Of a DNA stretch of 64,000 nucleotides, positions 3,168 through 64,000 are shown one piece after another. The stretch comes from a virus. The notes under the pieces were generated by a model, which saw only the letters and a list, made by a program, of their open reading frames with translations, did not search any database and was not told the origin of the DNA. Location of the stretch: IMG/VR virus record IMGVR_UViG_3300027708_001637. One strand, 5' to 3'. The position numbers and the translations under genes were made by a program. The first letter of the stretch is position 1, and each line of letters opens with the position of its first letter.

Positions 3168-3191
3168 TGTTTTTCCCGAGTTTTCTGCGTA

Positions 3192-3199
3192 TATAAATA
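3192..3199 (+). promoter_or_regulatory. T4-type late promoter TATAAATA
   Basis: Exact consensus upstream of the 3254 gene. Confidence 0.7.
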
Positions 3200-3233
3200 C
3201 TGTATAAGATAAAGATTATTCTTATCTACTAGT

Positions 3234-3241
3234 TATTTATT
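3234..3241 (-). promoter_or_regulatory. Late promoter variant AATAAATA for the tape-measure gene
   Basis: One mismatch to TATAAATA, upstream of the start at 3167; the same variant recurs before other structural genes. Confidence 0.55.
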
Positions 3242-3253
3242 CGGAGAAATTCT

Positions 3254-4150
3254 GTGCAACCAACCAATGTTCAATTCCCATCGTCTGCCGCATCATTGCC
3301 TATTTCAAATCCGCTGGCCATGTATATGCGTCAGCCTAAGATTTACTTTAGATTACCCAGCAGTGGAAATTTTTGGCCCAAAGGCAGCATTGAAATTCCA
3401 GAGACTGGACAGTTACCGGTATATTCAATGACTGCCAAAGATGAATTATTATTGAATGTACCAGATGCATTAATGAATGGGCAAGCTGTTGTTGATGTAA
3501 TACAAAACTGTATTCCCAGCATAAAAAATGCTTGGCAGGCTCCCAGTATTGACATTGATGCCATGCTTATTGCCATTAGAATTGCAACATATGGAGAAAT
3601 GATGGATACACCCGTGACATTTAAAAATGATATTGTAATGGATTATCAAATTGATCTGCGCACTGTATTAGATAATTTGATTCAATCCATATCCTGGGAT
3701 AATGCAATAGAAATTAGTAGCGAACTTACTGTATTTGTCAAACCCCTCAACTATAAACAACTAACTGAATCGGCATTACAAAGTTTTGAAACTCAAAAAA
3801 TTATGCAGTTGAGTAACAATGATTCAATAAGTGAAGATGAAAAAGTCAAAATGTTTAAAGAAAGTTTTGCTAAACTGACTAATTCTACAGTGGGTATGGT
3901 ATCAGCTAGTATTAGTCATATTGACACATTACAGGGTAGTACAGATAATCCCACTTTTATTAAAGATTTTATTGACAATGTGGACAAAGATGTTTTTAAT
4001 AAAATTCAAAAACATTTAGATAAGTTAAAAGATATAAATTCTATCAAACCAATGACTGTACCTGTAACTGATGAAATGCGAGAAAAAGGCATTTCAGGCG
4101 ACTCAGTTGAAATTCCATTAGTTTTTGACGCATCAACTTTTTTCGTATGA
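3254..4150 (+). CDS. Baseplate hub assembly protein / tail assembly chaperone (T4 gp26-like)
   Basis: 298 aa, GTG start after GGAG; NPL..Y.RQPKIY..LPS.G..W and YSMTAKDE motifs resemble gp26-family proteins; divergent from the tape-measure gene. Confidence 0.65.
   Translation: MQPTNVQFPSSAASLPISNPLAMYMRQPKIYFRLPSSGNFWPKGSIEIPETGQLPVYSMTAKDELLLNVPDALMNGQAVVDVIQNCIPSIKNAWQAPSIDIDAMLIAIRIATYGEMMDTPVTFKNDIVMDYQIDLRTVLDNLIQSISWDNAIEISSELTVFVKPLNYKQLTESALQSFETQKIMQLSNNDSISEDEKVKMFKESFAKLTNSTVGMVSASISHIDTLQGSTDNPTFIKDFIDNVDKDVFNKIQKHLDKLKDINSIKPMTVPVTDEMREKGISGDSVEIPLVFDASTFFV
4138..4144 (+). other. Candidate -1 ribosomal frameshift heptamer T TTT TTC
   Basis: X XXY YYZ heptamer in the correct phase at the end of 3254..4150; the -1 frame is open into 4147..4374. 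Confidence 0.6.
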
Positions 4151-32100: not shown

Positions 32101-32978
32101 ATCAAACTATTTCATATTCTGATTCAGTATTAGTACAAAATACTTTTACCAATGTTTCAACTAATACATATTCAATTAATACAGTAAGTAGCCTCATCAC
32201 GTATCCAAATACATCTACAACAATAACAAGTGATGGTATTATATTAATGACAACTCCGGGTAAATTTCCAATTGATATTACAACGGGCAAAATTAAATAT
32301 TCTACATCCGGATCTTCAATAGTGTATACTGTTTCCACATCTAGCATTTTACCAAAAGATCAATTAGAAATATATTATGGTGGTCAATTATTAAAGAAAA
32401 ATGGACACTATTATCATGATACTACTGTAAATTATGATAGCATTTTAGAAAATCAAATTGTTGGCACTACTGCTACTGTCGCTCAACTTCCAACAACTAG
32501 TACTATTGCTCTTGGCACTGCTTATTTGATTACTGCAACTAATCAAGTTTGGGTCTATGTAGGCAACCGTTCAGAAATAGCAATAAATGGCACAACATCG
32601 ACCATTACTGGATTGGACAATTCAACTACTGGTACTACTTATCTTGATACGACACAAAATATAGTATATTGGTCAACTGGGACTGGATATGTTGCAACGG
32701 CTACATTTGGATATGTGGATTCTGGACTGAGATATGTAGCACCAGATTTTACTATTATTGGTACTAGCCCCCAATACTCGGTAAAATTAAACGTGCCTAT
32801 TCAAGATAATGTTCAATTGACATTAGTCAAAAAACAGTATTCTATGTCACAAAGTTGGAATGATGTTATATCAAATACTAGTACTGTTTCTTTATTAAAT
32901 AGTACGGGAACTATTGCTACATTCCTACAAGATTCACCTGGCAAATTGCCAAATAGCTACTTCTACGGAGGAAAATAA
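20133..32978 (+). CDS. Giant baseplate wedge / structural protein (gp7-position), 4281 aa
   Basis: Uninterrupted 12.8 kb ORF after gp6, Thr/Ser/Asn-rich, with a NIDO-like segment near the N-terminus and seven FG-GAP-like repeats. Confidence 0.75.
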   Translation: MSTATIQTVNLLPSYLQTSKNSKFLASTIDQLIQPPQLEKLNSYIGYEPPVISVVTTQTVTTSSYELVALLKPADIAGTYFSTELVAPRKEGQFSQIAQFNADDAFQGPYNLGFDWNMFGTIYNQVYIGTNGYLTFGGGDVKYTPLTVGALKYPAIYVEYTDLWEGYGPSGQPLSTGETPGIRYATGSIGNFKYFRMRFQGSHYIQRNQTPVIPAYDYECTLYSDGVNQYVENIYEMIPSTVHGLGTNDIGAVFGIANPQNSIPPTTPLILPSQSVPNNTSHVFYSTQNGGKWYYSGPGSFDPFAKQGILISNTQTYILTTKNNYITSTSTYVDISKLPTWKLGDTYIKESSDLRQAYQLEPALIAYDKNLNVTTVVSIDDLANEITIKGGIADNFDRLFRSDVYSFDPKIDWDKLTNYQNYYWLPTGPALIDISSDNIDVDNDIIGNTSYTFTVTNSTATFSLLNGMLISFSGHNVSPAYKYQEFIVEGTGTSITLLPLNSLITPESVAAPADETFDTYGFSIWPGRLPFVPEYVTINRSSKDSNPWSRYNRWFSSNVIESSELANGRPITYPTKHRAKSPIVEFNADIQLFNFGSISIGSVDIIDTTTVDAFTTIEGSTSFATINESSIQIDGIALEYGQRIIFSADKNPVVSSTIYSVDIVNINGTPTLILVPSSNQIAAGSSVVVTKGTVNAGTSWYFNGTAWVYSQQRTHLNEAPLFDLFDDLGQSYSNKNYYTSNWGGNKIFGYKTGITNSLFYNYFANGSIVVTEPNQTIRSIPTSATYFKVGNEYFNTWGSRTAPPIEITSAGYYDVPLSLTNNPLNSGLSNLTLSDLTEHAAAKNRLIASYNPVAFAMMFEGKIENSVIDAITKSADAYNQFKFSLLTQAANINSLTDPVSALDEILTIINSSKTSTSPYYLSDMLAFGVDKKVITYTVNNLTRTSYSISSTFDLSAPNTRSVLVYLNEKQLTFGVDYIFDVIDNMVVMLTALSLGDVLTINEYNNTNGSFVPPTPSKLGLYPVSVPSMYVDYTYVTPTKVIQGHDGSIMVAFNDYRDAIILEYELRVYNNIKVKYRPELFDINSVTPGAFRNTDYSLDEITKIVEQDFIRWSGIYGIDYVSNPTFNNAEPRTWNYTGSLNTLLNVSVNGSWRSIFKYFYDTDRPATHPWEMLGLVSEPTWWTDLYGPAPYTSGNTLMWGDIEAGRINGVVNQFYARPGLSSILPVDSNGNQLDPTTVPLIVNTTPYNIRQSWIIGDQGPAETVWRRSSFWPFVVQRLLALTRPANYCTLMYDPFNMNVDLAGQWSYGANHTLPQLASMPIHGENGIATTGYSVFVSEIGQQRTKNYIADLRQDLTYVNFQLFHKVGGFVNPDTLQIILDAYEPTTMDAGAILPKQNYKLILNTSNPIRSIGISGLIIQRINGAFVVTGYDRQDPYFTYYTPIRNANTPTITVGGVSAEYVNWAPAATVGSRGLTSADITSAVSAPTTVFYQQGQIVRYGNNYYRVQVSHQAETAFNSSLYQLLTVLPTTGGATVQTASKFNSTPSYAPYGQTYNTIQEVYDLIIGYGAWLADQGFVFNEFNTTLNSVVDWNLSAREFLYWSTQNWINNSIISISPFADQLTYQYSDSVVDNVFDSFYDYSIYRSDGTPFPKKNLFIARESGQFTINTINTGDGIYYARLNSVQKEHGMIFDNTTAYSDVIYDIETGQRQHRMKLVGFRTANWNGDFFAPGFVYDQAKIVTWAPNTYYTASDVVQFNGQFYSAKMSLEGSKIFDHTKWTLLGSKPVAGLIPNFDYKIRAFNDFYSLDIDSFDAAQQRTAQQLTGYVPRDYLNNIFTDPISQYKFYQGYIKEKGTKNPINKLSKASINNLNSKIDFNEEWAFRVGQYGSFTTYKEFETPLVEGKFAENPQIISFVNTVPELFKDLVYYVTPDKLTIGKGTLPSFVTTSSSASSFKLLNAGYAQLDDVTNTAFNTNSLITLANNTALNVGDTVWVSSTNTGDWDIYRYAFVPAGITNVAVEVAYSSIIFTTAGSHGLKATDLVSITNIDSSVNGIYQVVSVIGNTQFTVSSSLSSVNFIFPTTPGTLFTFKSSRFSSYDNMPSDQELFQYPPGTTIWIDSGNLTDNNGWAVYEKVNNYYKTKVNSFGTTSALSSNQALGYSISKRKGNNVVVAGLPTYNDTSGNSGRVSLYTKNGNNLQFLLNYPLSNTPLPNTEFGYSVIYDDIEFNLTTYGLIFAGAPGAYNSSGTIKISSINANSLQQQPEITIDNPSNTYGRFGSSIFVQRNTSTKLVLIGAPENGGSVYSYTITATNTIQINQPKTVTASTSGTLWLSTSTRWGHSIVGSDNASIYAIGAPGFDNNSGTVWTSNYELITSPFGSGSGFGHSMAMSTSGNYLAISAPNYINANNSLGAVAVYTLTNSTYILDQILYNPVNTNIYGGSLHFGYAMDFNAETDILIISSLGTASTTLTTFDKGSTTFDKKTTYFTADEPGSGSVYLYERRAHRYVYANELTSSDITTVQGTDYGTSVAVDTGVVLVGAPAITSNGSSSVHQFNQINSTYTGWNPLRVQDDLVVLDTIREIKLIDTITDSIVNYYDYHDPLKGKILGIAEEELTYKTATDPAIYSTGTSTVNVNVNTSWLDDHVGELWWDLSTAKFIWYEQGDLEYRRNKWGKLFPGASIDVYEWVGSQLLPSEWAAQADTNSGLTSGISGQPKFVDNSTVSVSQVYDTVTGSFTNYYYYWVLNKVVVPNVKNRRISAQSVANIIFNPAAAGVQYAAIISSNALMLGNVATQLVSDNISLNISLDTANSKIPRHTEWVLMQEGSHDSVPPPILERKMIESLLGHTISTSTNAGAPVPDPTLSSREKFGIGFRPQQTLFNDRLQAVRTIVEFANSVLINLQITGNYNFDRLNSQQLAPTSYNVVEDNNALDMIIPTDGMIVTVLSDNTYDGSWTVFKYNSNIQQWVRYQTQTFNTTLYWNYTDWVSSDYDQYKILSATVANTYELSLLSLVAGQYVKVNNRGDGNYIIVEKVNTIGNFNNDFDLVYIQNGTIQLSKDLWDSPYGWDETYSFDQTAWNRTPDYELQQILQALKDDIFINDLKSNWNLLFFKAIKYAFTETQTIDWAFKTSFISAINYAGELNQPAVYKLQDNAFYENYLNEVKPYHTQIREFTTEYSSTDTINTSLTDFEGIYTGTDQIIVPFRAVTGSILFDRVSTMPTIGTLPVTDTFIGDGGTREFVLSWVAHPNKSQLTVTIDDTYVLQSDYTVRYYSAKSNGYQKQFSNLKFLNQSPSQNSRIMITYNKSIELMDATDRIINFYDPTPGMPGNDLNLLMDGVTDPRKSIGGQYEGTNFGNRFGGTVADTSIDAGLFYNGKLINALGINPTDLTINGEYGFVTTSSAYGPEELIPGFTIDTLGIDVYTKSNKLVSPTIISGSFNVNASKSTSTIKTTVIQPTTKTGSTQTVVTEIINSTTYGLSILPTTIDSIFVNFNGIEFDYTDSPFTNSAQFSIDWYKSTISIPAQFSNGLLGYTIIGVGDSSTNGNGLIDNGIAYAANTQTKSIVSLANIHDITHSYVTVNGAPITQIDSGNNIYYSLNSASTTSNRAAATVKNLQLDKQYAVQAWFFASSQDKFNVIQEQVFPVVSSVYTLTNFVSNSTSGSPSTQVIVEYIYSNGIKRRLLPPDVSYYTVIDPSIKSYRVVLAASGVTFNTSNTNTNVYLNGSILTTSSYTFSGNQIVISNSVTLNVGDTVSVEAFNNSDITRASSNNYTYDYVIDNSGKLYLTSNITQPHPLDKLKVITFSNQDSLLLETQKFLGNPAGTYKMSRPVLNVNYVWVTIATSSTVTALTSGIDYQVLDDNITVKLSDQYPVTSNQTVIIMSFGNNKSASNVLAYRQFKDLLGGSSFTRLSDRNSTYLTKPLAFTHTEICVADASVLTPPDVNQNIPGVILVDGERIEFFTISDSNTLTHLRRATLGTSPSDHLIAGTIVIDQGSYQTISYSDSVLVQNTFTNVSTNTYSINTVSSLITYPNTSTTITSDGIILMTTPGKFPIDITTGKIKYSTSGSSIVYTVSTSSILPKDQLEIYYGGQLLKKNGHYYHDTTVNYDSILENQIVGTTATVAQLPTTSTIALGTAYLITATNQVWVYVGNRSEIAINGTTSTITGLDNSTTGTTYLDTTQNIVYWSTGTGYVATATFGYVDSGLRYVAPDFTIIGTSPQYSVKLNVPIQDNVQLTLVKKQYSMSQSWNDVISNTSTVSLLNSTGTIATFLQDSPGKLPNSYFYGGK

Positions 32979-34412: not shown

Positions 34413-35666
34413 ATGCCATATATCTTAAACAAAACTAACGGAACACTGCTTACTACAGTTGAAGATGCTACGGTTAATAATGCCTACAGTTTAACATTTT
34501 TGGGCAAAAATTTTACTGGGTACGGGCAAGCTATTGAAGAAAATTTTGTAAAGTTATTAGAAAACTTTGCCAATAGTTCATCACCATCTAACCCAATTTC
34601 GGGACAGTTGTGGTTCAACACATCAACTCAACAATTGAATATTTCTAGCAATGGATTAAATTGGAAAGGTGTAGGTAGTATATCAGTAGGATCTACATCT
34701 ACTGTAAATTTAACCCCTACTGAAGGTGATTTGTTTTGGGATTCAAATTTATCTAGTTTAATTGCATACGACGGATCTTCGTATATTACTATTGGTCCAT
34801 ACAGTGCCAGTACGTATGCTTCTTGGACTATTGGCCGAATTACAAGTGATAGTAACACTGGCAATCAACAATATCCAGCAATAGTTGGTAGCTTGCAAGG
34901 GTCATCTGGTCTTGAGCCAATGGTTGTTTTTTCTAATCCAGCAGTGCCCTCATACACGCCTGATAGTGTTATGGGGTCAGATTATGCACCCTATTTTAAT
35001 TCAATACAACGTGGAATTACATTAAGGGGTGCAAACACATCTACTACTGTTCCTAGTAATTCAACCATTTTAGTTCCAGGGTCTAGTATTGATTCTGGAT
35101 ATTACTTTTGGGGAACCTCGGCTGAGTCATTAGCTACTGTAACAGTTGAATTAACTACTACTACCAATTTTAATACGTGTTTCATTCCGTTTGCTGGAAC
35201 AACTTTAGGTGCAACATCGTTATTAACAACTTCTACTTTTTCTTATGAACCAAGTACAGGAGTGTTAAATGCTACTGCTACTGCGGCATACTATGCTGAC
35301 TTAGCCGAGCGTTATGAAGCCGACACTGAGTACGAAGTTGGAACTGTATTAGTAATTGGCGGCACAAAAGAAGTTACTGTTACTGATCAATTTGCTGATA
35401 CAAGAGTAGCGGGCATAGTGTCTAAAAACCCTGCATATATGATGAATTCTGACGCTGGAAGTGATGAAACTCACCCTTATATTGCCTTAAAAGGCCGTGT
35501 TCCTTGCAAAGTTGTGGGCTTTATTGAGAAAGGTGACCTACTAGTAACTAGTGCACATCCTGGATATGCTGCTGCCGCTAAGTCAATAAGTGCAGGTGCA
35601 GTAATTGGAAAAGCCCTGCAAGGTAACTCACAGGGCTTTGGGGTTATTGAAGTTTTAGTAGTTTAA
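34413..35666 (+). CDS. Tail fibre protein with C-terminal intramolecular-chaperone-like domain
   Basis: Start at MPYILNKTNG (34413); C-terminal YADLAERYEAD...AGIVS.NPAY.MN...IAL.GRVPCKVVG...GDLLVTS..PG...IGKAL. Confidence 0.75.
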   Translation: MPYILNKTNGTLLTTVEDATVNNAYSLTFLGKNFTGYGQAIEENFVKLLENFANSSSPSNPISGQLWFNTSTQQLNISSNGLNWKGVGSISVGSTSTVNLTPTEGDLFWDSNLSSLIAYDGSSYITIGPYSASTYASWTIGRITSDSNTGNQQYPAIVGSLQGSSGLEPMVVFSNPAVPSYTPDSVMGSDYAPYFNSIQRGITLRGANTSTTVPSNSTILVPGSSIDSGYYFWGTSAESLATVTVELTTTTNFNTCFIPFAGTTLGATSLLTTSTFSYEPSTGVLNATATAAYYADLAERYEADTEYEVGTVLVIGGTKEVTVTDQFADTRVAGIVSKNPAYMMNSDAGSDETHPYIALKGRVPCKVVGFIEKGDLLVTSAHPGYAAAAKSISAGAVIGKALQGNSQGFGVIEVLVV

Positions 35667-36550
35667 ACAGCCATTGGTGCTGTAATAGCATCGTGGTGTT
35701 CATAATGAACTAATTCAATATCGTTCATTTCAAAGTCTGTAATAACCTGTACTGAAGGATTCAATTGTAGTGTTGCCAACGGCAATGGTTCACGACTAAG
35801 TTGTTCACGTACTTGATCAAAATGCGTATTGTAGATGTGCGCATCTCCAAACGAAATAATCAAATCGCCCACATCTAAATTACAAACTTGTGCAATCATA
35901 TGTGTAAACAATGCATATGATGCAATGTTGAATGGTACGCCTAAGAACATATCTGCACTACGCTGATACATATGGCAACTCAATCGGCCATTGCTAACAT
36001 AAAACTGACTCATAATGTGACAGGGAGGTAACGCCATCAATTCAAGTTCACCAGGATTCCAAGCACTAATGATATGTCGACGACCGTAAGGATCTTCTTT
36101 AATACCTGCAATCAATTCAATCAATTGGTCGTGATTTTGCAATACAACTTTGTTGATACGAATTAAAGGTTTACGCCAACGACGCCATTGTACACCGTAA
36201 ATGCGTCCCAAGTCACCCGCGCTACGTTTTGTTTTCTTGTTAACCCAATATGGTGCATTGGCGTTATCAGTCCAAATAGTAGACTTGGTACTTTCACGAC
36301 TGCCGTGTAAAATCTCCTTCAAACGGCGTTCGTCGTTACTGCCTTCGATGAACCAAAGTAGTTCACTAACAACACTTTTCCACGCTAACTTTTTAGTTGT
36401 TACCGCAGGGAACCCTTCGGATAGATCAAATCTAAGTTGCATCCCGAAAATGCTACGAGTACCAACACCTGTACGGTCTGGCCTATCGTCACCATTTTCT
36501 AAGATGTCTTTAAGGGCATCTAAGTATACTGACTCGGACGTTTTGTTCAT
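35663..36550 (-). CDS. thyA: Thymidylate synthase
   Basis: DRTGVGT, YGVQWR, MALPPCH, YQRSADMFLGVPFN, GDAHIY motifs; no intron. Confidence 0.98.
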   Translation of the reverse strand: MNKTSESVYLDALKDILENGDDRPDRTGVGTRSIFGMQLRFDLSEGFPAVTTKKLAWKSVVSELLWFIEGSNDERRLKEILHGSRESTKSTIWTDNANAPYWVNKKTKRSAGDLGRIYGVQWRRWRKPLIRINKVVLQNHDQLIELIAGIKEDPYGRRHIISAWNPGELELMALPPCHIMSQFYVSNGRLSCHMYQRSADMFLGVPFNIASYALFTHMIAQVCNLDVGDLIISFGDAHIYNTHFDQVREQLSREPLPLATLQLNPSVQVITDFEMNDIELVHYEHHDAITAPMAV

Positions 36551-37725: not shown

Positions 37726-38988
37726 TTATTTATAATATGCAGTTTGTCCAAACGGGGCAACGATGCTTTCATTGCCGTGAATAATGAATAAACTTTCACA
37801 ATAGTCTTCATCACCCCAACTACCACAAGGGTATCCGTCAGTAAACATAATGAAACGCTTTGGAACAATGTCTTCATTCTTCATGAACTCAAAGTTTACA
37901 TCAAAGTCAGTACCGCCACCACCTTGACATTTGTAGGACATAATGTCTTCGGCAGTATCACCAGTAAAACGTTGATAGCCATAAACTTCTGTATCAAATG
38001 TCCACAAGTCCAATTTAAAGTCCTTGTATTCGTCCATAATGCCTTTGACTTCTGACAAGAAGTCCATTGCCATAGAGTCACTAATACTTCCAGACATATC
38101 AATTGCCACTGACACATCAATAGTTTCTTCGTTCATCATACCTGGCAAGATAGCACCACAGTGTTGACTCTTGCGGTTAGGACGACTGAAACTAAAATTG
38201 CTTTTCAGAATACTTTGGATATTCATACGCAACATTTGACGCCAGTCCATCTTAGGCTCAGTAAAGTCAGTAATCAAACGTGCAACACCTGCAGGAACTT
38301 TACCAGCACCTGCTGCCTGTGCAGCCGCAACCATTGCTTCTTTGATTTCGTCTTTAATTGCTTTCTTTTCTTCTGGAGTCAACGTTGGACGCTTGCCGGA
38401 ACCGTCTTGAGTGCTGTCTTCGTTTTCATCGCCGTCACCGTCATCATCACCGTCCAAGTGTTCGTCTAACAGTTCACCCAATGTGCTAATATCAATCTTT
38501 TTAGCCTTTTGATACAGTTCATCATAAATCTGTTCGTAACTCAAACCACGATACTTGTCGTCTTGGAATACTTTGATGCAGGATGGAAATTCGCCAATGC
38601 GCTCGTCCTTGCAAATTTGATTAACGGCATAGTCAGCGGCAAAGTTGCTCAACTGTGGATCACGACCATCACGTCGACCCATATGGTCAAATACATTGTG
38701 CAGTACTTCGTGAGCAAAGCCAAACTCGCATTGTTTAGGAGTCAATTGATCAACGAAATCGTTGCTGTAATAAAAGTTTCGACCATCGGTGGCTAATGTA
38801 CTACACCATTCAGATGCATCAATTAGTTTCATACGAGTAGCCATATTGCCAAAAAACGGATGACGCAACAGCAAGCCAATGCGAGCAGTGATTAGCTTTT
38901 CGACAATCTTATTCTTTTCTGTTTGAGAAAATGCACGTTTTTCTTGTGCTTTGTATTTTTTATTTGCTGTTGATGTTTTAGCAGACAT
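37726..38988 (-). CDS. DUF2201-like metallopeptidase-VWA domain protein (MoxR partner)
   Basis: TLATDG...HEVLH zincin motif, acidic linker, VWA MIDAS IDMSGS...FD...GGGTDF...MFTDG. Confidence 0.9.
   Translation of the reverse strand: MSAKTSTANKKYKAQEKRAFSQTEKNKIVEKLITARIGLLLRHPFFGNMATRMKLIDASEWCSTLATDGRNFYYSNDFVDQLTPKQCEFGFAHEVLHNVFDHMGRRDGRDPQLSNFAADYAVNQICKDERIGEFPSCIKVFQDDKYRGLSYEQIYDELYQKAKKIDISTLGELLDEHLDGDDDGDGDENEDSTQDGSGKRPTLTPEEKKAIKDEIKEAMVAAAQAAGAGKVPAGVARLITDFTEPKMDWRQMLRMNIQSILKSNFSFSRPNRKSQHCGAILPGMMNEETIDVSVAIDMSGSISDSMAMDFLSEVKGIMDEYKDFKLDLWTFDTEVYGYQRFTGDTAEDIMSYKCQGGGGTDFDVNFEFMKNEDIVPKRFIMFTDGYPCGSWGDEDYCESLFIIHGNESIVAPFGQTAYYK
37727..37734 (-). promoter_or_regulatory. T4-type late promoter TATAAATA
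   Basis: Exact consensus overlapping the VWA gene stop, upstream of 37714. Confidence 0.65.
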
Positions 38989-43714: not shown

Positions 43715-44578
43715 TCAAGTGCCCCACTCATTTTTAAACAACGGCACTTGCAATCGATCACTGTATCTAAGTCCGTGTTTCATTGCCAACAATGCTACAT
43801 TCTTATTATTCATTACATACACACTTTCAACTCCACCTACTGGCATTAGGTAAACGTAACCTTTAAATCCTGCTTGACGATATGCAGCAATAGCACATTC
43901 AGCATCAGCAAAGTCTTGTTCAGTAGCAATAACAAACTTCAAATATGCAGTTCCGTATTCTTCATATTCACAAACACGTTCTGGTTTAATAGCATCATCC
44001 CATGGTTCGCCTGAACACGGTAGTTTAGCACTTACACTAAATGTAATTTCTCTTTTAGGATCTATATCTGTCCAACTGCGTAAGAATTCTTTAAAGTCTT
44101 TTGTTAAACGCATTGTGCCATTTGTTTCAAAAGTAATTTCTTTTAAACCTGACATTTTGGGATTGTTTAACAAATCTGGATATGCTTTTTGCCAACCTAG
44201 CAACGGTTCGCCACCTGTGATAACAAGGTGTTCATCTTTCCAATGATCTTGCGGAAGAATTTCCATAATACGATCGGCAATAGCATCACTAGTGAGCATA
44301 GGACTAAGGTCTTTAAAACTAGGATGCCAACTAGCATAACTATCGCAACCTGTACTGACCAAAGGCAGGTCTTCGTATTTTTTAAACGCTATAGTTTCAT
44401 GTGATGTTTGTAGTAATGCAAGTTTGTCTGCTTCGTCGCTTAATTCGCCACGCGGCATACCAAAACCTTGACAGGTAAAGTTACATCCAAATGTGCGTAG
44501 AAACACACTGGGCACTCCCATATATTTTCCCTCTCCTTGTATAGAGTAGAAAAGTTCTGCAATTTTAATTTTGCTCAT
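43715..44578 (-). CDS. queE: 7-carboxy-7-deazaguanine synthase (radical SAM)
   Basis: ELFYSIQGEG...G.PSVFLR..GCNFTC...CDS split radical-SAM motif, VITGGEPL, ETNGT, S.K, KFVI. Confidence 0.9.
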   Translation of the reverse strand: MSKIKIAELFYSIQGEGKYMGVPSVFLRTFGCNFTCQGFGMPRGELSDEADKLALLQTSHETIAFKKYEDLPLVSTGCDSYASWHPSFKDLSPMLTSDAIADRIMEILPQDHWKDEHLVITGGEPLLGWQKAYPDLLNNPKMSGLKEITFETNGTMRLTKDFKEFLRSWTDIDPKREITFSVSAKLPCSGEPWDDAIKPERVCEYEEYGTAYLKFVIATEQDFADAECAIAAYRQAGFKGYVYLMPVGGVESVYVMNNKNVALLAMKHGLRYSDRLQVPLFKNEWGT

Positions 44579-57550: not shown

Positions 57551-57815
57551 CAGTACGACGATGTGAATGTCCGCTGATATCCACAATAGTCTCCAAGTCG
57601 TCAAATTCTTTCCAAACGCTGTCCCATTGATCTTTTTGTGCAATACGAATTGCTTTTTTAATCACACTGGGTTTAACTTCCAATTCTTCAGCAATGGCCT
57701 TGATTGTTTCGTTTAGACCTTCTTGTAAGTCGCTGATCTCTTGCATAACGGTCATACCTTCTGCAACAATTTGTTTAATTTTGGCCTGTTCAGGCGCTCC
57801 AAATGCTTTACTCAT
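57543..57815 (-). CDS. dsDNA-binding protein (T4 DsbA / GapR-like)
   Basis: 90 aa from MSKAF after AAGGAG; helical pattern aligns by eye with T4 DsbA (I.....L....EEL.V......AI.I..KD). Confidence 0.62.
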   Translation of the reverse strand: MSKAFGAPEQAKIKQIVAEGMTVMQEISDLQEGLNETIKAIAEELEVKPSVIKKAIRIAQKDQWDSVWKEFDDLETIVDISGHSHRRTDE

Positions 57816-57871: not shown

Positions 57872-58306
57872 TTACTCGCAATGCCATTTACGAAGACTTT
57901 TGTTTATGCGACTGTTTGGATCTCTCTTAGTTTTGGCTCCAGTACGATGTTTCTTCATACCTTTCATACGAGCACAGAAACTCTTACGGCGTTTACTGGC
58001 CTTACTACCTTTTTTCAACTTACTAGGTTTGGTAGTTACAGCAGTTTTCAATTTGCTACCAGGATGGCTACGACGATAACTGGCCACCCCCTTTTTATTT
58101 AGGCCACCGTTTTTATTTTTACCACTTGATTTTTGCCAGGCTTCGGCTTCGCTGAGTAATTCTTCATCATCTACAGTTTCTAAATCTTCCCAAATTAAAT
58201 CACTGTCAACACCGTGTTGTTCAGCCCAATAGTCTACCATTGATTCAATTATATCAAATTGACTTTCTAAAATGGTGTCTTCAATAATAAATTCAATTGC
58301 TCTCAT
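57872..58306 (-). CDS. Putative internal head protein: acidic N-terminal part plus basic DUF6321-like domain
   Basis: Start MRAIEFIIE (ATGA overlap); AWQK..GKN..GGLN.KG..SYR...RRKSFCARM...DPNSRINKSLRKW.C. Confidence 0.65.
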   Translation of the reverse strand: MRAIEFIIEDTILESQFDIIESMVDYWAEQHGVDSDLIWEDLETVDDEELLSEAEAWQKSSGKNKNGGLNKKGVASYRRSHPGSKLKTAVTTKPSKLKKGSKASKRRKSFCARMKGMKKHRTGAKTKRDPNSRINKSLRKWHCE

Positions 58307-59067
58307 TTTTTCTTTGCCCTTCCTGCTTTCATATTGGCCAACCAATGTGCCATACGTTGCTTTTCACCCGAACTGTGTTTAGCAGTTTTGCGTAGACTAC
58401 TGACACTAGCTTTGGTATTTACACCACTGCGTTTGGCAAGACCTTTGCGTCCAGGATGTTTACCATCAGCGAAGTTTTCATTAGTGCGTCCGTATTCACT
58501 GGCTTCGCCTTCTAAACTAACGTGCCACGCATAAAATTTAGTTTGCGGATATTCTTTTTTCAATTCCATAAAACTAACTAAATTGGGTTTAGCGTCGTCA
58601 TACATAATTGCTTTTGTATATTTTCCTTGATTCAAAAGATTGCGGATGATGATCTTTTTCTTTTCTTCAGTTTGCATTTTGCCAGTCATATTGCCAGCAC
58701 GGTAAACGTGAACCTTACTCATATCCACACCATACTTACGGAATGTATCTAAAAATAATTCTCGATCATCAAAATCTGCACGGGCAGTTACCATAACAAC
58801 TTTATTGCCTGTAGCAATATCTTGTTTAAGTTGATTAAGCATTGGGATGATTGGTTTTGATTTTTCAAAGAATTCTTGAGCACTTCTAAAATCACCAAAA
58901 TCAAATTCTTCGCCAGGTTGTAGTTTGTAATGTGTGAAGTCGTGGCTGTTGAGACTTTTGATTACCTTGCCGTCACGAATCACGTGAACTTTAGTTTGTG
59001 TATGGACAAGTGTATCGTCAATGTCGAATATCACTAACTTACTGGGAAGGAAATCATTGGCTCTCAT
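58303..59067 (-). CDS. HAD-superfamily phosphatase (Pnkp/RNA-repair-like) with basic C-terminal module
   Basis: FDIDDTL, VTAR, KK and YDD motifs I-IV; basic tail after TNE. Confidence 0.8.
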   Translation of the reverse strand: MRANDFLPSKLVIFDIDDTLVHTQTKVHVIRDGKVIKSLNSHDFTHYKLQPGEEFDFGDFRSAQEFFEKSKPIIPMLNQLKQDIATGNKVVMVTARADFDDRELFLDTFRKYGVDMSKVHVYRAGNMTGKMQTEEKKKIIIRNLLNQGKYTKAIMYDDAKPNLVSFMELKKEYPQTKFYAWHVSLEGEASEYGRTNENFADGKHPGRKGLAKRSGVNTKASVSSLRKTAKHSSGEKQRMAHWLANMKAGRAKKK

Positions 59068-59696
59068 AAATTGAATGCTTTTAAATTCTTTTCAATTTGT
59101 CCAGGACGAACATCCTTAGTCAAACTCATTGAATAACGTGGATCTTTAGCTTGCTTTTTAGTAGCAATTACACCCGATGCATCTTCCATTGGTTGATCTT
59201 TTAAAAATGTATCAGCATACTTTTTACAAATATCCTTAATGCGTTCGTCGCCAGTTTCTTCTAATGTATATTCATTATGTTCATTGTGTTGGCTAGGATC
59301 AATATATCCGCAGTAGACTTTTCTAACCATACTGTTGTTGATGAGATCGGTACAACTTTCTCCATATCGTTCATCGGCCATATCAGTATCATCTTCATTA
59401 CAGGGACTTAGCGTAGTAATGATAATGCTGCCTTCTGGAACTTCTCCATACTGTTCAACATAGTTGTCCATTGCTACTCGTTCAGCGTGTCTACGAGTCC
59501 CGTCACCCTTGGCGGTGTTGATACCGTAGACTACATTATGATCAGGATCTAATATGCAGGCCGCAACCATTCCATACTGATCTGGGTCAGTTTGTTTGCC
59601 TTCGAAAATCAATCTGCAAAGTTTTACAAGATACTGATCGAGGTGTTTACGACCGTGTATCTTGTAATCTTTTTCAGTAAACTCTGAGAATTTCAT
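59064..59696 (-). CDS. Zn-dependent deaminase (RibD/CDA fold) with capsid-targeting-like N-terminus
   Basis: HAER...TLSPC-x15-C..LI....VRKVYCG..DP; N-terminus MKFSEFTE. Confidence 0.78.
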   Translation of the reverse strand: MKFSEFTEKDYKIHGRKHLDQYLVKLCRLIFEGKQTDPDQYGMVAACILDPDHNVVYGINTAKGDGTRRHAERVAMDNYVEQYGEVPEGSIIITTLSPCNEDDTDMADERYGESCTDLINNSMVRKVYCGYIDPSQHNEHNEYTLEETGDERIKDICKKYADTFLKDQPMEDASGVIATKKQAKDPRYSMSLTKDVRPGQIEKNLKAFNL

Positions 59697-62011
59697 TACT
59701 TTTTCTTACTAGGATTCTTTGCACCATAACTAGCAGCCACTGCCATTTGACGACGCTTTTCTTTTGTCTTGCCCTTGAATTGTGGAGCATTGGATTTTTC
59801 AAAATCTTTGATCCAAACATCAACTGGTGCATTCTTAGGAATCTTTTCATCTAGCTTGGCTTGCAACTCAGCCATATAACCGTCTTCCTGCTTCAATGCC
59901 TGTGCTTTGACCATTTTACGGATAAGTGCCTTATCTTCTTTTTCATCAGGATGACTATCTTCGCCCATATCGTGTTCGTCGTCAACAGCATTGAACACTG
60001 CATCTAAGTAATCAGCAGCCTTAGTGACTTTGCTTTGTTGCCAAGGTTCCAATGTATCGCCTTGTGCCTGCATTGCTTTTACTGCACGGCGCAGTTTAGC
60101 AGCGTGTTTGACTAGGCTTTTCAATTGACTTGTAGTCATACCGTTGGCTTCGTCATTGTACCAATCTGGATTTTCGTGTACGCTGTCATCGTGTCCTGCA
60201 CCAGTGTAACGGCTGGTGTCTTTACTGCCAGAGGCATATGCACCTTGTCCCCACCCACCGCTTGCTGTTGAGTGATCTTCCATGTGTTTAGGTTTTTTGC
60301 CTTGCTTCTTTATGTTGATTGCAATAGCAGCCTGCTGTGCAGCATTGGCCGCCTCATTGGTATTAGGCACACAGTTGCGCACCTGTCCACCATTCTTGCC
60401 CTTCTTAGTACCAGCAGCGTGGTGTCCTGGCCAGCATTTGGTAAAACCGTTTGAATCCTTAGCACCTTTCTTGATCTCGCTAAGATTACCGTGTGTTTGG
60501 CACATACCACAATCAGGACATACACTTTCCATTGTCATATCTTCATTATGTTTCTTCTTGCCAGCACAGTGAGCCTTTTGACTAAAACCTTTTGGATGAC
60601 TACAGTTGATACTGCTCTTATATTTTTGGCTCCACTCTTCCGCCACACCTTGCTCTTTGATATTTTTATTCTTTTTCTTAGCAGCCAAGTGATTCAAGTA
60701 AGCAGCCTTTTGCTTTTCTGGGCTACGCATATCAGTTGGGTCAAACCAGTCACTTTTCTTGATTGGTTTTTCTTGTTCCGAGCCTTCCGCCACACCTTCC
60801 TCCATATTTTTATCAATATGTCGTTTAGCAGCCGCCAGCGTGGAGAATTTTCTAAGACTAGAACTGATACCCCATTGGTATGGGCCTTCCTGTGTTATGC
60901 CATATCCTTTGTATGTTCCTTTTTTGCCTACGAAAGTATCAGGATTGTATTCACCTTCCGCCACACTTTCTTCAGGATTATAGTCTGTCCACCCATATTT
61001 GCTAGGCTTTTGCCACCCAGATTTGTTCGGCCTTGACGACCCATAGTCTTTTGAAGTGTCGGCTGGTTTTGCCTGAATACTTAACATTACCCAGTCGTTT
61101 TTATTAGGATCAAAGACTTCAACCCTGTGGTCCAGACCTACCTCAATATCCTGCCTTTTATTTTCAACTTTTGTATTACCTGTGTTAATAGGAGTAAAAA
61201 CAACAAAATGAAACCCCGAACGACTCATTTCGGAATGTATACCATCTTTATTAACGATCCCTTGATACATTTTTTCGTAGTCACCACTAGATCGATCAGT
61301 CTCACCCCACTTAATTTTCCAACCTTTCATGTCCCAGTCACTAGATCCAACAACACCTGTAACAGTATCATAGCCCTCCGCCACACCTTGCTCTTCACCG
61401 TAGGGAAATACTTGTACCCATTTGCCGCCTTGATTCTGTACAAACTTTTTAGGATCAAACTTGCTGCGGATAATGCCGTGTAATTTTAGTGCTTCGTCTT
61501 GACTATCTCTGAAACCCTGTGCACGGGCCTGTCTTTCGTTTTGATTGGAAACCATCTTTTGCTTTAGTCTACCGTCTACATAGATATACAACATATTGCT
61601 TTCATCGTCCGCTGCACCCTGACCATAATATTCCCGACCACCTAGTTTAGGAGCAGTGGGACTACCAAATCCGTGACTATAATCGCGATTGCGGCCATAG
61701 CCTGCTTCTGCCAATTCAAACTGTTTATTCTTGTGTTTGACATCACCTTGCTTTTCGGCCTTCTTTTTATCCTTGTGCGCACCAGCACCACCCATCTTGG
61801 CATTTTTAGCAACAAAGTTTCTAGGAGTAGTTGAGGGAACAGTGTCTTTATTTGCTTCTTGTGCAATAAGATTATCACCACGCTTGCGTACACCGCCCAT
61901 TGGGCTACTTACACTAGCAATGTTACCTGAACTAGTTCCGCCACTAGTGGCACTTTCTAATGTGTAGACTGTTGCGTCTTTAAATTTTTTGGCTTTAAAT
62001 TCTTTGTTCAT
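59696..62011 (-). CDS. Modular putative head polyprotein with GVAEG repeats
   Basis: Start likely MNKEF at 62011 (ATGA overlap); short modules separated by x-x-E sites; four GVAEG copies. Confidence 0.72.
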   Translation of the reverse strand: MNKEFKAKKFKDATVYTLESATSGGTSSGNIASVSSPMGGVRKRGDNLIAQEANKDTVPSTTPRNFVAKNAKMGGAGAHKDKKKAEKQGDVKHKNKQFELAEAGYGRNRDYSHGFGSPTAPKLGGREYYGQGAADDESNMLYIYVDGRLKQKMVSNQNERQARAQGFRDSQDEALKLHGIIRSKFDPKKFVQNQGGKWVQVFPYGEEQGVAEGYDTVTGVVGSSDWDMKGWKIKWGETDRSSGDYEKMYQGIVNKDGIHSEMSRSGFHFVVFTPINTGNTKVENKRQDIEVGLDHRVEVFDPNKNDWVMLSIQAKPADTSKDYGSSRPNKSGWQKPSKYGWTDYNPEESVAEGEYNPDTFVGKKGTYKGYGITQEGPYQWGISSSLRKFSTLAAAKRHIDKNMEEGVAEGSEQEKPIKKSDWFDPTDMRSPEKQKAAYLNHLAAKKKNKNIKEQGVAEEWSQKYKSSINCSHPKGFSQKAHCAGKKKHNEDMTMESVCPDCGMCQTHGNLSEIKKGAKDSNGFTKCWPGHHAAGTKKGKNGGQVRNCVPNTNEAANAAQQAAIAINIKKQGKKPKHMEDHSTASGGWGQGAYASGSKDTSRYTGAGHDDSVHENPDWYNDEANGMTTSQLKSLVKHAAKLRRAVKAMQAQGDTLEPWQQSKVTKAADYLDAVFNAVDDEHDMGEDSHPDEKEDKALIRKMVKAQALKQEDGYMAELQAKLDEKIPKNAPVDVWIKDFEKSNAPQFKGKTKEKRRQMAVAASYGAKNPSKKK
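60636..61393 (-). repeat. Four in-frame copies of the GGTGTGGCGGA(A/G)GG repeat
   Basis: Invariant core GTGTGGCGGA at 60639-60648, 60786-60795, 60957-60966 and 61377-61386. Confidence 0.92.
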
Positions 62012-62379
62012 TTCTTTTTCATCCAATTTGAAATAGGGCTTAGTGTTCCCACATCTTTAGTTTCTTCACTTTTTGTAGTGCTAATAAGTTTCTTATCTCC
62101 CGACGATAAACCTACTAATTTCAATGCATCGTCGATAAATTTGTCAACACCGTTTTCATATGATACTACAATTAAATTCTCACCCCAGGGACTTGTGGGT
62201 TCAAACTTTTCAGTTTGTTCTGATCGACCTTTGGCCTGTGCAATAGCAACACCAAATCTGTATTGTTTATATGGATCTTGATTTCGAAGTTCAGGAATCG
62301 TATAAGTCGCAGGCAGTGCACTGGCAGCATCGTCTTGAATGCTGCCAGTTCTTCCTTCAACTAATTCGCGTATTCTCAT
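62008..62379 (-). CDS. Putative internal head protein
   Basis: MRIRELVE N-terminus; C-terminal EETKDVGTLSPISNW is paralogous to the next gene. Confidence 0.65.
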   Translation of the reverse strand: MRIRELVEGRTGSIQDDAASALPATYTIPELRNQDPYKQYRFGVAIAQAKGRSEQTEKFEPTSPWGENLIVVSYENGVDKFIDDALKLVGLSSGDKKLISTTKSEETKDVGTLSPISNWMKKK

Positions 62380-62753
62380 TTTGCTTTATTCCAATTTGAC
62401 ACTGGGCTAACTTTGTGAGTACCTTTGGGTTCTTCACTTCTTCTATTTCCCCAAGTTCTCTTGCTCTTATCTCCAATATTTTTGGCTGCACGATCTATCA
62501 TTTCTTCTTCCATTGGATGATATGGGCTTGCAGTTGGATCACCGCTGGAAAAGTTATCCACGGGAAGATAAGCATCGGGAGTATCACCGGCACCCGCTGG
62601 TGCCACTGACAGTAGCATTCTACTATGCAAATAACCGCTGCCGTGATACATATTTTGATCAGGAAATGTGTGCGTATTGCTAATTACTGCTTTAGTTTCT
62701 GGATTTATTTTTCCTCCAGTAGCATATTCGCGAATAAATTCTTTTGATCTCAT
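62376..62753 (-). CDS. Putative internal head protein
   Basis: MRSKEFIRE N-terminus; C-terminal EEPKGTHKVSPVSNW. Confidence 0.65.
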   Translation of the reverse strand: MRSKEFIREYATGGKINPETKAVISNTHTFPDQNMYHGSGYLHSRMLLSVAPAGAGDTPDAYLPVDNFSSGDPTASPYHPMEEEMIDRAAKNIGDKSKRTWGNRRSEEPKGTHKVSPVSNWNKAK

Positions 62754-62770
62754 AATATTTCCTAGTTGTG

Positions 62771-63031
62771 TTATTTATTCTTACCAAACCAAAGTTGAAA
62801 CCATTCGTCGGTGCCAGGCCTAATACCCTGTTCACGTTGTAGTTGCCCTTTGTTGCTGCCTATTACTGGCTGTCTCTGTTTTGCCCTATATTCTGCTAGT
62901 CGTTCGTTAGCACCTAATCCATTCATTGCAGCGGCAGCGATAAGTTCTTGTATGGGATCTTCCGGAGACAAATAGCAATCGTCATCACTTTTTGGAGTGA
63001 TGTTGGCCGTAGTGATCCTGTACTGCTTCAT
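62771..63031 (-). CDS. Hypothetical protein
   Basis: 86 aa, ATGA overlap; GIRPGTDEWFQLWF. Confidence 0.72.
   Translation of the reverse strand: MKQYRITTANITPKSDDDCYLSPEDPIQELIAAAAMNGLGANERLAEYRAKQRQPVIGSNKGQLQREQGIRPGTDEWFQLWFGKNK
62772..62779 (-). promoter_or_regulatory. Late promoter variant AATAAATA
   Basis: Upstream of the 62753 start. Confidence 0.5.
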
Positions 63032-63999
63032 TTTAATTGGCTTTCAATTAGTCGAGCAATAGCATTGGCCATAGCAACATCTACATCTTCGCCGATATTT
63101 TGTCCACGCCAGTTAGGCTGCGCAGTATAGTTTGCTTCTCCGCTGTAGCCTGGCTTCTTGGCAGCATAACTTCCACCATCAAAACTTTCTTCAGCACTGC
63201 CGCCAACTAAGTCACCTGCTCGTGCTGGGCGCTTCATAGAACCTTTTAATTGTCCTGCTGGGCCAAGTTTGTTTTTCTTAGATCCTGCAAAGGTACTTGC
63301 AGGCATCATCTTTTCATTTACGCCTTGCTCTTTGGGTGGGTTGACAGGAACAGTCTTGTACACACGCTTGATAGGATCCCAAACAGTTTTGCGCTCGCCT
63401 TGTTTAGCCATCTGACTCAATCGTTTTACTTTGTCTTGATAGTCAGCACCGTAGTCTGCTTCGCCTTCCGCCACACCTTGCTCTTGCCAAGTGTTATTTT
63501 TGATTCGTTGATTTTTAATTCTTTCGTAATTCATTAACGAACCACGAATACGATGCTGGTCACCAGTATTTCCTGATAAGAGATGTTTCTTATAATAGTC
63601 AATCTGACTTTGAACAAACTTGTTTGAGTAACTATCTTCTTCGGAGCCCTCCGCCACACCTTCCTTATACAATGCTAGTCGCTTCTGCTCGTGGGCAATA
63701 CTTTGTTGTATAGCAGCCTTGTCGGCATTGGGTTGTTTGAGTTGTGCTTGTAATCTTTCTATAGTGGCCCGAATAGCAGCCACATCCTGTTGGTCACGTT
63801 TGGATAAGCCTTCCGCCACACCTTGCTGACCTTGACTCATTCTGTGTAGAGTATTCAGTTCGTCCATTAATGCTTTGCCTGCTTGTTGAACATCACTAGT
63901 ATGTTTCATAACTTCATATGCAGTATCAACTGCGGCTAACATTTGTTCTTTGCTAGGACTCCAACCCTTACCTGTCTTGGCAAAATAGTTCATCATTGC
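63028..63999 (-). CDS. Second modular GVAEG polyprotein, probably 5'-truncated by the window edge
   Basis: Frame open to the window end; three GVAEG copies and one degenerate QGVNE. Confidence 0.72.
   Translation of the reverse strand, partial: AMMNYFAKTGKGWSPSKEQMLAAVDTAYEVMKHTSDVQQAGKALMDELNTLHRMSQGQQGVAEGLSKRDQQDVAAIRATIERLQAQLKQPNADKAAIQQSIAHEQKRLALYKEGVAEGSEEDSYSNKFVQSQIDYYKKHLLSGNTGDQHRIRGSLMNYERIKNQRIKNNTWQEQGVAEGEADYGADYQDKVKRLSQMAKQGERKTVWDPIKRVYKTVPVNPPKEQGVNEKMMPASTFAGSKKNKLGPAGQLKGSMKRPARAGDLVGGSAEESFDGGSYAAKKPGYSGEANYTAQPNWRGQNIGEDVDVAMANAIARLIESQLK
63313..63827 (-). repeat. Three further GGTGTGGCGGA(A/G)GG copies plus a degenerate copy
   Basis: Core at 63467-63476, 63650-63659 and 63812-63821; degenerate GAGCAAGGCGTAAATGAA at 63313-63330. 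Confidence 0.92.
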
Positions 64000-64000
64000 C

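Follow-up and report, generated by a model that had tools for sequence, protein, structure and literature searches.

The window, the whole 64,000-nt stretch of DNA that was analysed, comes from an uncultured freshwater T4-superfamily jumbo phage with a genome of 37% G+C. It has no near DNA match among cultured phages, and by DNA polymerase the cultured phages nearest to it are Phosso (50%) and Atu_ph07 (45%). Two genes on the minus strand are arrays of modules divided by a recurrent in-frame motif, hereafter the joint, and both adjoin the DNA polymerase in a region of replication and nucleotide metabolism, outside the head module. Relatives have gene 1 in a syntenic position, with the deaminase-like gene and the DNA polymerase downstream of it. 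Judged from its reading frame, gene 2 probably represents the 3′ portion of a gene that continues past the window end; conserved sequence precedes cassette F in frame in three other loci, and in L162 the positional counterpart of gene 2 codes for 1436 aa and has its joints confined to the final third. The genes and modules are as follows.

57872-58306, minus strand: DUF6321 protein with the T4-like targeting leader MRAIEFIIE
58303-59067, minus strand: HAD/PNK-like protein with the T4-like targeting leader MRANDF...
59064-59696, minus strand: dCMP-deaminase-like protein with the T4-like targeting leader MKFSEFTE
59696..62011, minus strand: gene 1, a 771-aa polyprotein with its ATG at 62011 and an alternative TTG at 62026
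61712-62011, minus strand: gene 1 module A1, conserved N-terminal
61376-61711, minus strand: gene 1 module A2
60956-61375, minus strand: gene 1 cassette B
60785-60955, minus strand: gene 1 cassette C
60638-60784, minus strand: gene 1 cassette D
59696-60637, minus strand: gene 1 modules E1-E3, conserved C-terminal
62008-62379, minus strand: small paralogous gene between the arrays, leader MRIRELVE
62376-62753, minus strand: small paralogous gene between the arrays, leader MRSKEFIRE
63028..63996, minus strand: gene 2, cassette array F-G-H-I, frame open to the window end
63811-63996, minus strand: gene 2 cassette F
63649-63810, minus strand: gene 2 cassette G
63466-63648, minus strand: gene 2 cassette H
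63028-63465, minus strand: gene 2 cassette I

The two small paralogues share a C-terminal SP(I/V)SNW motif. Searches with the modules returned only a weak DUF7230 match in Pfam, only unnamed viral clusters in the Atlas and no match among PDB sequences. An AlphaFold model of gene 1 (mean pLDDT 55, pTM 0.30) was too poor to define domains; all four of its joints lie in stretches with pLDDT below 50, which is uninformative because 57% of gene 1 residues do so as well.

A sequence-only reading of this DNA had described seven copies of a codon-fixed motif in two separate genes, and its copy number, codons, flanking GGT and GG, and spacings were all borne out by our motif count. The 9-mer GTGGCGGAR matches eight times in the window, each time on the minus strand (8/8), where shuffles expect 0.24. 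Seven of these matches are in-frame V-A-E copies (60638, 60785, 60956, 61376, 63466, 63649 and 63811, minus strand), split over the genes at 59696-62011 and 63028-63996. GGT precedes V-A-E in six of the seven (60956 has AGT), GG follows GAR in six of the seven (60638 has GAG), and the core spacings of 147, 171, 420, 183 and 162 nt are each a multiple of 3. The conserved DNA block spans ~19-21 nt with sharp edges, has the consensus (G)AG CAA GGT GTG GCG GAA GGC and encodes the six-residue linker peptide Q-G-V-A-E-G; all 45 exact 12-mers stand in one and the same open frame. The same reading had placed the core nowhere else in the window, which does not hold because an eighth 9-mer lies out of frame at 61936-61944. 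The joints and related sites are listed below, with a slash at the putative cut position.

60635..60655, minus strand: joint J1, E-Q-G-V-A-E/E, between cassette D and module E1
60782..60802, minus strand: joint J2, E-E-G-V-A-E/G, between cassettes C and D
60953..60973, minus strand: joint J3, E-E-S-V-A-E/G (GGT to AGT), between cassettes B and C
61373..61393, minus strand: joint J4, E-Q-G-V-A-E/G, with GAG, between A2 and cassette B
63463..63483, minus strand: joint J5, E-Q-G-V-A-E/G, between cassettes H and I
63646..63666, minus strand: joint J6, K-E-G-V-A-E/G, with GAG, between cassettes G and H
63808..63828, minus strand: joint J7, Q-Q-G-V-A-E/G, between cassettes F and G
63313..63330, minus strand: probable decayed joint, GAG CAA GGC GTA AAT GAA (E-Q-G-V-N-E), 4/18 positions off consensus
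61936..61944, minus strand: chance copy of GTGGCGGAA, not a joint; out of frame, reading S-G-G-T
61700..61720, minus strand: protease-type site F-E-L-A-E/A-G at the A1/A2 boundary, TTG GCA GAA, without the locked DNA

The 6- to 8-mers of the joint showed no enrichment outside joints, and a Chi-like or scattered DNA-site reading was rejected on this ground. Antisense copies of the motif are absent from the window, every match lying on one strand, and an antisense guide within the window was likewise rejected. In 596 Gb of prokaryote genomes the exact 21-mer matched twice, once probably by chance in a G+C-rich alphaproteobacterial MAG and once within a fragmentary phage polyprotein carried by a contig of a Bacteroidetes MAG; neither match yields a reliable host. 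The 12-mer occurs 0-1 times in Phosso, Atu_ph07 and the cyanophages P-TIM68 and S-SM2. A literature search for 'GVAEG' returned nothing on phages and no paper on the joint, and neither a cleavage linker fixed at the nucleotide level nor the reshuffling of cassettes at cut sites is known to have been reported.

The joint is constrained at the nucleotide level beyond what its peptide requires, as the sequence-only reading had proposed. Both of its central codons are minority codons in the window's other genes, where GTG makes up 13.6% of Val codons and GCG 7.9% of Ala codons; the chance of GTG GCG in 7/7 copies is ~1.7e-14 if the copies are taken as independent. Among loci retrieved with protein patterns in which the joint plays no part, GTG GCG encodes 79 of 87 distinct G-V-A-E sites versus 4 of 46 V-A-E sites not preceded by G (Fisher p ~8e-22, the copies not being fully independent). 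Single-base variants of the 12-mer are GAA>GAG, one GGT>GGC or non-synonymous, and none is a single silent change at the third position of GTG or GCG. Two sets of controls showed normal silent-site variation. In 77 distinct targeting leaders from the same loci, Ala is encoded by GCA 41, GCT 10, GCC 8 and GCG 3 times and the Ile codons are spread 22/15/12, a normal codon usage; in the scaffold and capsid genes of relatives, GCG occurs in 0/15 [LIV]-A-E sites, mostly L-A-E. A comparison site in the window, I-V-A-E-G at 57756-57767, indeed reads GTT GCA GAA GGT, although the DsbA-like label given to its gene finds no DsbA match.

Could the joint matter as a peptide only, its DNA identity being a by-product of recent origin and fast horizontal spread of cassettes? 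The phages co-occur in the same lake metagenomes, and the silent sites of cassette C differ only modestly from one context to another (18/42 columns vary within the family); recent common descent alone could therefore explain those particular joints, and at least part of the pool is young. Yet the leaders, which belong to the same mobile gene class and the same loci, vary at silent sites in the ordinary way, and the lock persists even where the conserved modules of a locus share only 44-50% identity with those of the window. In a genome biased towards A+T, the codons used are rare ones rich in G+C; GTA GCA serves in 5/87 G-V-A-E copies, and the probable decayed joint reads GGC GTA AAT GAA. The preference even extends to the codon two before Gly, whose third base is G in 68% of copies whichever residue is encoded. 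We therefore consider a purely peptide-level explanation unlikely.

The modules that the joint divides are exchanged, and the earlier claim that the motif parts unrelated cassettes was upheld by the recurrence of the same cassettes at other loci, flanked by joints, with other neighbours and across both genes. Cassettes C and G reappear elsewhere, 77-96% identical, with other neighbours around them. Cassette C is found full-length in at least 8 other proteins (83-96% identity), has a joint on both sides wherever the flank is seen, and meets five left and six right neighbours; cassette G lies in gene 2 here and in gene 1 orthologues elsewhere. The order C-D-E1 of the window contrasts with E1-C in others. 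Nucleotide homology begins and ends only a few bases away from the joint: of 127 blastn homology starts, 50 lie at -11 to +15 nt of a joint, in stretches that make up 4.4% of the region. Lake-metagenome contigs also diverge from the window at joint edges, data used only for this purpose, as many 'joints' in the contigs have 20-25 nt sides and may reflect a repeat placed on another copy. The prediction that breakpoints fall at the repeat was confirmed as an enrichment, with 22-31% of homology breakpoints in the family lying no more than 8 residues from a joint versus 9% at random, but these are a minority of all breakpoints, and other exchange points therefore exist. The commonest homology breakpoint in the family is F-E-L-A-E/A-G at 61700..61720.

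Homology-driven in-frame shuffling, like that of T4 PeSL cassettes, fits these data best. In T4-type phages, PeSLs are short conserved motifs that flank small variable units (Arbiol et al. 2010, PMC2839356; PMC4122927), and these units are lost, gained or swapped when motif copies recombine, a process that needs no dedicated recombinase (PMC2839356). The likeness is one of shuffling mode only. A PeSL is an intergenic promoter plus stem-loop that moves whole genes, whereas the joint is intragenic, frame-locked, translated and much shorter; lying inside open reading frames, joints have neither a hairpin nor promoter hexamers, unlike the PeSL promoter and terminator stem-loop. The T-even gp38 adhesins offer a second parallel, in that their glycine-rich motifs (GRMs) alternate with hypervariable segments (HVSs) and exchanges map near the motifs (PMC3157838). 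These GRMs, like joints, are conserved in-frame motifs between variable segments, but they form the core of one folded domain in fixed order, whereas joints part reorderable modules and are probably cut; arrays differ in which cassettes they contain and in what order, and one cassette can be found in two different genes, unlike the fixed-order GRM/HVS design.

The sequence-only reading had suggested an integron-like system. Integron cassettes likewise form arrays of unrelated short units with a repeated site and with content that differs between relatives. An integron, however, has an integrase, an attC hairpin and attI, all three absent here in the parts scanned, and its units are promoterless genes rather than in-frame segments of a single protein. 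Neither Pfam nor PHROG scans of the array neighbourhoods and syntenic loci returned an integrase. The joint 21-mer is not self-complementary and its copies share one strand and one frame, unlike attC. The integron comparison is thus not supported, because neither a recombinase nor a structured attC-type site was found in the parts scanned; nor is there a single capture point.

A related proposal is that a dedicated sequence-specific system (a phage nuclease, recombinase or guide RNA) recognises the 19-21-nt joint and mobilises the cassettes. The block is near-invariant and sharp-edged and is strictly confined to joints, its sub-words not being enriched elsewhere. Free-standing endonucleases are many in T4-type phages, with an HNH gene at 37726-38988 in the window and another beside the capsid gene in L158. 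However, no integrase, transposase or nuclease gene adjoins the arrays, either here or at syntenic positions in relatives, the joint, a plain 19-21-mer, is not palindromic and has no antisense copy in the window, and PeSL shuffling works without such an enzyme. To a dedicated system we accord little probability.

At the protein level, several observations bear on whether the joint is cut. Leaders in these phages follow the consensus M-[RK]-x-x-E-F-[IV]-x-E/ (9-10 residues) and start most small genes around the arrays as well as stand-alone versions of the modules; the gene 1 N-terminus (MNKEF..., then Y-T-L-E/S) is less typical and differs from this consensus. Modules start at the same residue after the leader's Glu and after the linker's Glu, with 144/191 matches between post-leader and post-joint sequence at offset 0. 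In T4, such leaders and cutting after Glu have been described (PMC9026906). Peptidase_S77 (T4 gp21) is present in 4/5 related joint-bearing contigs and was not found in the scanned parts of the window. The V-A-E/G site resembles the L-A-E/[SAGT] sites of the relatives' capsid and scaffold proteins, the former having H-L-A-E/S at the T4 gp23 cut position and the latter three to five [LIV]-A-E sites. In giant phages (phiKZ gp175, SPN3US), a gp21-related protease likewise cleaves head proteins behind the Glu of a short motif, and cargo for ejection is packaged in large amounts (PMC5694885, PMC7411985). Given the offset-0 module starts and the gp21-type protease in 4/5 relatives, the predicted cleavage after V-A-E is therefore well supported, in line with the sequence-only reading: V-A-E fits a gp21-type cut site.

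That reading's terms 'head polyprotein' and 'effector for injection' are less secure. The modules may be packaged in the head, but the genes lie beside the DNA polymerase, outside the head module, and injection is suggested by analogy with T4 internal proteins. The latter (IPI, IPII, IPIII, Alt), which prohead protease gp21 processes, likewise carry a short N-terminal leader ending hydrophobic-x-Glu, in their case the capsid targeting sequence, and are likewise small, basic, non-conserved and highly variable between relatives. They are separate genes, whereas the modules here are fused into polyproteins via a repeated internal site, and this site is fixed as DNA, whereas the leaders of the same phages have no codon lock. 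The location in the replication and nucleotide-metabolism region would also suit a joint that is an uncleaved flexible linker in multi-domain chains, perhaps cytoplasmic rather than packaged, and the AlphaFold model is too poor to argue from domains. Such a linker is improbable, given that in stand-alone genes the module begins, counted from the leader Glu, at precisely the same residue, that neighbouring genes bear T4-like targeting leaders, and that V-A-E/G matches sites in the relatives' capsid and scaffold proteins.

A constraint on mRNA or translation (a pause, internal start, RNase site or regulator binding site) could draw on the motif being a G+C-rich island with GTG and purine-rich stretches in A+T-rich mRNA, but is very improbable: AAGG lies only 1 nt before GTG, where leader genes have their purine-rich stretch ~8-13 nt upstream of ATG, and joints are not followed at any set distance by a start codon, so that an internal-start or Shine-Dalgarno reading was rejected; the common codons GGT, GAA and CAA are as fixed as the rare ones, unlike in a rare-codon pause; and the flanks of joints are unrelated, which makes a conserved local fold impossible.

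We favour, with a probability of about 0.58, a reading in which the joint is both a gp21-type cut site and an in-frame microhomology for T4-type exchange of cassettes in precursors of packaged proteins. Both genes would encode precursors of internal head proteins of this T4-superfamily jumbo phage, as small, mostly basic modules concatenated via the fixed joint (E)-Q-G-V-A-E/G. A gp21-type prohead protease would cut after the Glu and free each module, and would remove the 9-10-residue leader from stand-alone versions. The joint DNA, 19-21 nt, G+C-rich and unique in the genome, would serve as microhomology for the ordinary T4-type machinery of recombination and replication, by which cassettes would be deleted, inserted or exchanged. 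Exchange would take place from one array to the other as well as among relatives infecting the same cell, and no dedicated recombinase would be required. Mutated joints would leave the exchange pool, and surviving joints would stay identical even at rare silent codons. Recombination microhomology is thus our proposed cause of the DNA-level constraint; 15-21 bp is short for UvsX-type homologous recombination.

If instead the joint were the recognition site of dedicated phage machinery that cuts or recombines this 19-21-mer, a case of true in-frame cassette capture to which we give only a slim chance, a phage population would be able to reshuffle quickly, inside single genes, a repertoire of proteins that are packaged and injected. 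Silent sites fixed across diverged phages would mean that one short sequence has two roles, as protease site and as recombination joint, and would explain how T4-type phages diversify the cargo injected with their DNA. Among the T4 members of this cargo class are IPI, an anti-restriction protein, and Alt, an enzyme that modifies the host. The rule of a leader or joint followed by a module would open a large catalogue of candidate packaged proteins from uncultured freshwater jumbo phages, and points to an existing in-frame scheme by which several foreign proteins could be packed into T4-type capsids.

The joint, an in-frame linker with the peptide (E)-Q-G-V-A-E|G that separates successive cassettes, is encoded on the minus strand of the window. 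Its 9-mer GTGGCGGAR occurs eight times there, against 0.24 copies expected from shuffles, and seven of the eight, spread over two ORFs, keep the V-A-E frame; the remaining out-of-frame copy at 61936 is probably a chance match. The copy counts and spacings in the sequence-only reading proved correct on recount, and its impression that GTG and GCG are minority codons was borne out: they supply 13.6% of Val and 7.9% of Ala codons, respectively, outside gene 1 and gene 2, and the codon-usage probability of seven GTG GCG pairs in seven joints is ~1.7e-14, assuming independent copies. The arrays comprise the following features.

59696-62011, minus strand: gene 1, an ORF of 771 aa with four in-frame joints (modules A1 and A2, cassettes B, C and D, then E1-E3)
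60785-60955, minus strand: cassette C of gene 1, 57 residues
63028-63996, minus strand: gene 2, an ORF with three in-frame joints (cassettes F, G, H and I)

The codon lock of the joint is real and general. We assembled 31 viral contigs through joint-free peptide patterns and five further loci through exact protein look-up; across these fetched loci and the window, GTG GCG encodes 79 of 87 distinct G-V-A-E contexts and only 4 of 46 V-A-E occurrences without a preceding Gly. All copies of the exact 12-mer GGTGTGGCGGAA share one open frame (45/45), and variants that differ from it by one base for the most part carry GAA>GAG or alter the peptide (V>M, A>V, G>D/S), with no single silent change at the third position of GTG or GCG among them. 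The conserved block is ~19-21 nt long, has sharp edges and includes a third-base preference for G in the codon of a variable residue (E, K, Q). As controls, 77 distinct leaders (T4-like capsid-targeting N-termini, M-[RK]-x-x-E-F-[IV]-x-E) from the same phages show ordinary codon usage, and GCG appears in none of 15 [LIV]-A-E sites, mostly L-A-E, in the relatives' scaffold and capsid genes. A protease site in itself therefore does not require GTG GCG, nor does peptide conservation on equally mobile genes yield a codon lock. Recent common descent alone could lie behind joint identity within single cassette families; it leaves unexplained both the contrast with the leaders and the presence of rare G+C codons in loci whose conserved modules share only 44-50% identity with those of the window.

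Cassettes are exchanged between these loci. Cassette C is found full-length in at least eight other proteins at 83-96% identity, flanked wherever seen by a joint on both sides, with five different left and six different right neighbours. Cassette G lies in gene 2 in the window and in gene 1 orthologues elsewhere, and the module order C-D-E1 of the window compares with E1-C elsewhere. The proposal that homology breaks at the joint held in part: when the region was compared with every fetched locus, 50 of 127 nucleotide homology starts lay -11 to +15 nt from a joint, in stretches that make up 4.4% of the region, but only 22-31% of protein homology ends among 120 homologues lie within 8 residues of one, compared with 9% for random positions. 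Joints are thus a minority of breakpoints, and the commonest in gene 1 is an L-A-E|A near residue 100 that has no codon lock. Contigs from four lake metagenomes part from the window sequence at joint edges, and in related contigs the joints occupy one strand and are grouped in few loci. Two of these, both large viral contigs, terminate inside joint arrays (G001, 118749-119261; G004, 163113-163841), as expected if populations differ there, which suggests that assemblies break where cassette content varies between populations. On a Bacteroidetes MAG contig (L169; 3-1388, minus strand, and 1285-3539, plus strand), a partial polyprotein with four joints lies directly beside genes that by eye resemble outer-membrane efflux and membrane-fusion (HlyD-type) genes; either the assembly is chimeric or the contig hints weakly at the host.

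Several features of the related phages point to the joint as a putative protease cut site. Peptidase_S77, the family of T4 gp21, is encoded by four of five large related contigs, adjoined by portal, scaffold and capsid genes; the relatives' capsid protein reads H-L-A-E|S-A-T where T4 gp23 is matured, and their scaffold protein has [LIV]-A-E at three to five positions. The small genes surrounding the arrays mostly open with a leader like the T4 capsid targeting sequence, whose role and removal by gp21 have been reviewed (PMC9026906). The strongest argument for predicted cleavage comes from comparing the 45 residues that immediately follow a leader with the 45 that immediately follow a joint: 144 of 191 matches have offset 0, and thus a module starts at the same residue whether the Glu before it belongs to a leader or to a joint. 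Modules that start alike in both settings include the Cys-rich E1, DUF6321 and an N-F-A-D-G-K-N-P-G module. In one locus (L141, minus frame at 3606) the leader runs straight into a joint, M-R-A-T-E-F-I-I-E-G-V-A-E-G, a possible entry architecture for array building.

Near its N-terminus, gene 1 encodes Y-T-L-E|S-A-T-S-G-G-T-S-S-G-N-I-A (61900-61966, minus strand). In a single comparison (L156, 6164-7345, minus strand), this stretch matches the relatives' capsid sequence H-L-A-E|S-A-T-A-G-A-T-S-A-G-N-I-A, their predicted maturation site and mature N-terminus, at 13 of 26 residues (E 4e-5); mimicry of a capsid arm and a protease exosite are possible roles for it. The motif S-A-T-x-G-x-T-S-x-G-N-I-A also follows leaders in two other loci (L099, L149).

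More than 1300 database relatives of gene 1 were found, with patchy, mosaic coverage, and in relatives it keeps its place, with a deaminase-like gene and the DNA polymerase gene downstream of it. The gene 2 frame stays open to the window end (63028-64000, minus strand), relatives' genes at this position encode 1178-1436 aa, and in the one counterpart examined (L162, 1436 aa) joints are confined to the last third; the window therefore probably contains just the tail of gene 2, and further joints may lie beyond its end. Besides gp46/47-like nuclease, gp55-like late sigma factor, baseplate hub and wedge, and family B DNA polymerase genes, the window encodes:

20133-32978, plus strand: 4281-aa ORF after a baseplate wedge gene, with a CBM_5_12 carbohydrate-binding repeat as its sole Pfam match, probably a giant fibre protein or one associated with the baseplate
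35663-36550, minus strand: thymidylate synthase
37726-38988, minus strand: HNH endonuclease, 420 aa (phrog_1314, E 4e-105), ~21 kb from the arrays, with no connection to the joint found
43715-44578, minus strand: QueE-like radical SAM enzyme
59064-59696, minus strand: deaminase-like protein with a targeting leader
62008-62753, minus strand: two small paralogues side by side, 123 and 125 aa long, each with a leader of the targeting type and, at the C-terminus, the motif S-P-(I/V)-S-N-W-(M/N)-K, which relatives' orthologues retain

The source is a T4-superfamily jumbo phage for which no close cultured phage was found, and several freshwater metagenome runs contain the window stretch nearly whole. 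By DNA polymerase it comes nearest to Sinorhizobium phage Phosso (50%) and Agrobacterium phage Atu_ph07 (45%). Close to the polymerase of Phosso, its nearest relative in culture, lie folE- and queE-like genes, and the window encodes QueE-like, thymidylate synthase and deaminase-like genes; 7-deazaguanine DNA modification is therefore possible.

The joint is absent from cultured relatives and cyanophages, and a full-text search for the motif returned no paper on phages. Prochlorococcus phage P-TIM68 (L164, 58-1179) has an E1-like Cys-rich module after R-M-N-E|G, without the locked joint, in a protein that ends in a long Gly/Asn-rich tail. The system, first proposed as possibly integron-like, does not belong to the integron class. 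Tests of alternative mechanisms lent them no support: no integrase or nuclease adjoins the arrays, the joint forms no hairpin, no antisense copy occurs in the window, joint sub-words are not enriched elsewhere, and internal translation starts at the joint yielded no credible candidate. The joint system resembles T4 internal proteins in their leader and gp21 mode and resembles PeSL-type shuffling, yet falls outside the PeSL class; PeSL, a mobile regulatory cassette of T4-type phages, is shuffled without a dedicated recombinase (PMC2839356), and the in-frame motifs of gp38 adhesins offer a further parallel (PMC3157838). The reading that fits best is one of dual use, with a single sequence acting as a cut site in the protein and a microhomology in the DNA. 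As protein, the joint would be a gp21-type cleavage site; as DNA, it would provide a unique, G+C-rich microhomology, in frame, where the general phage recombination machinery could delete, insert and swap cassettes.
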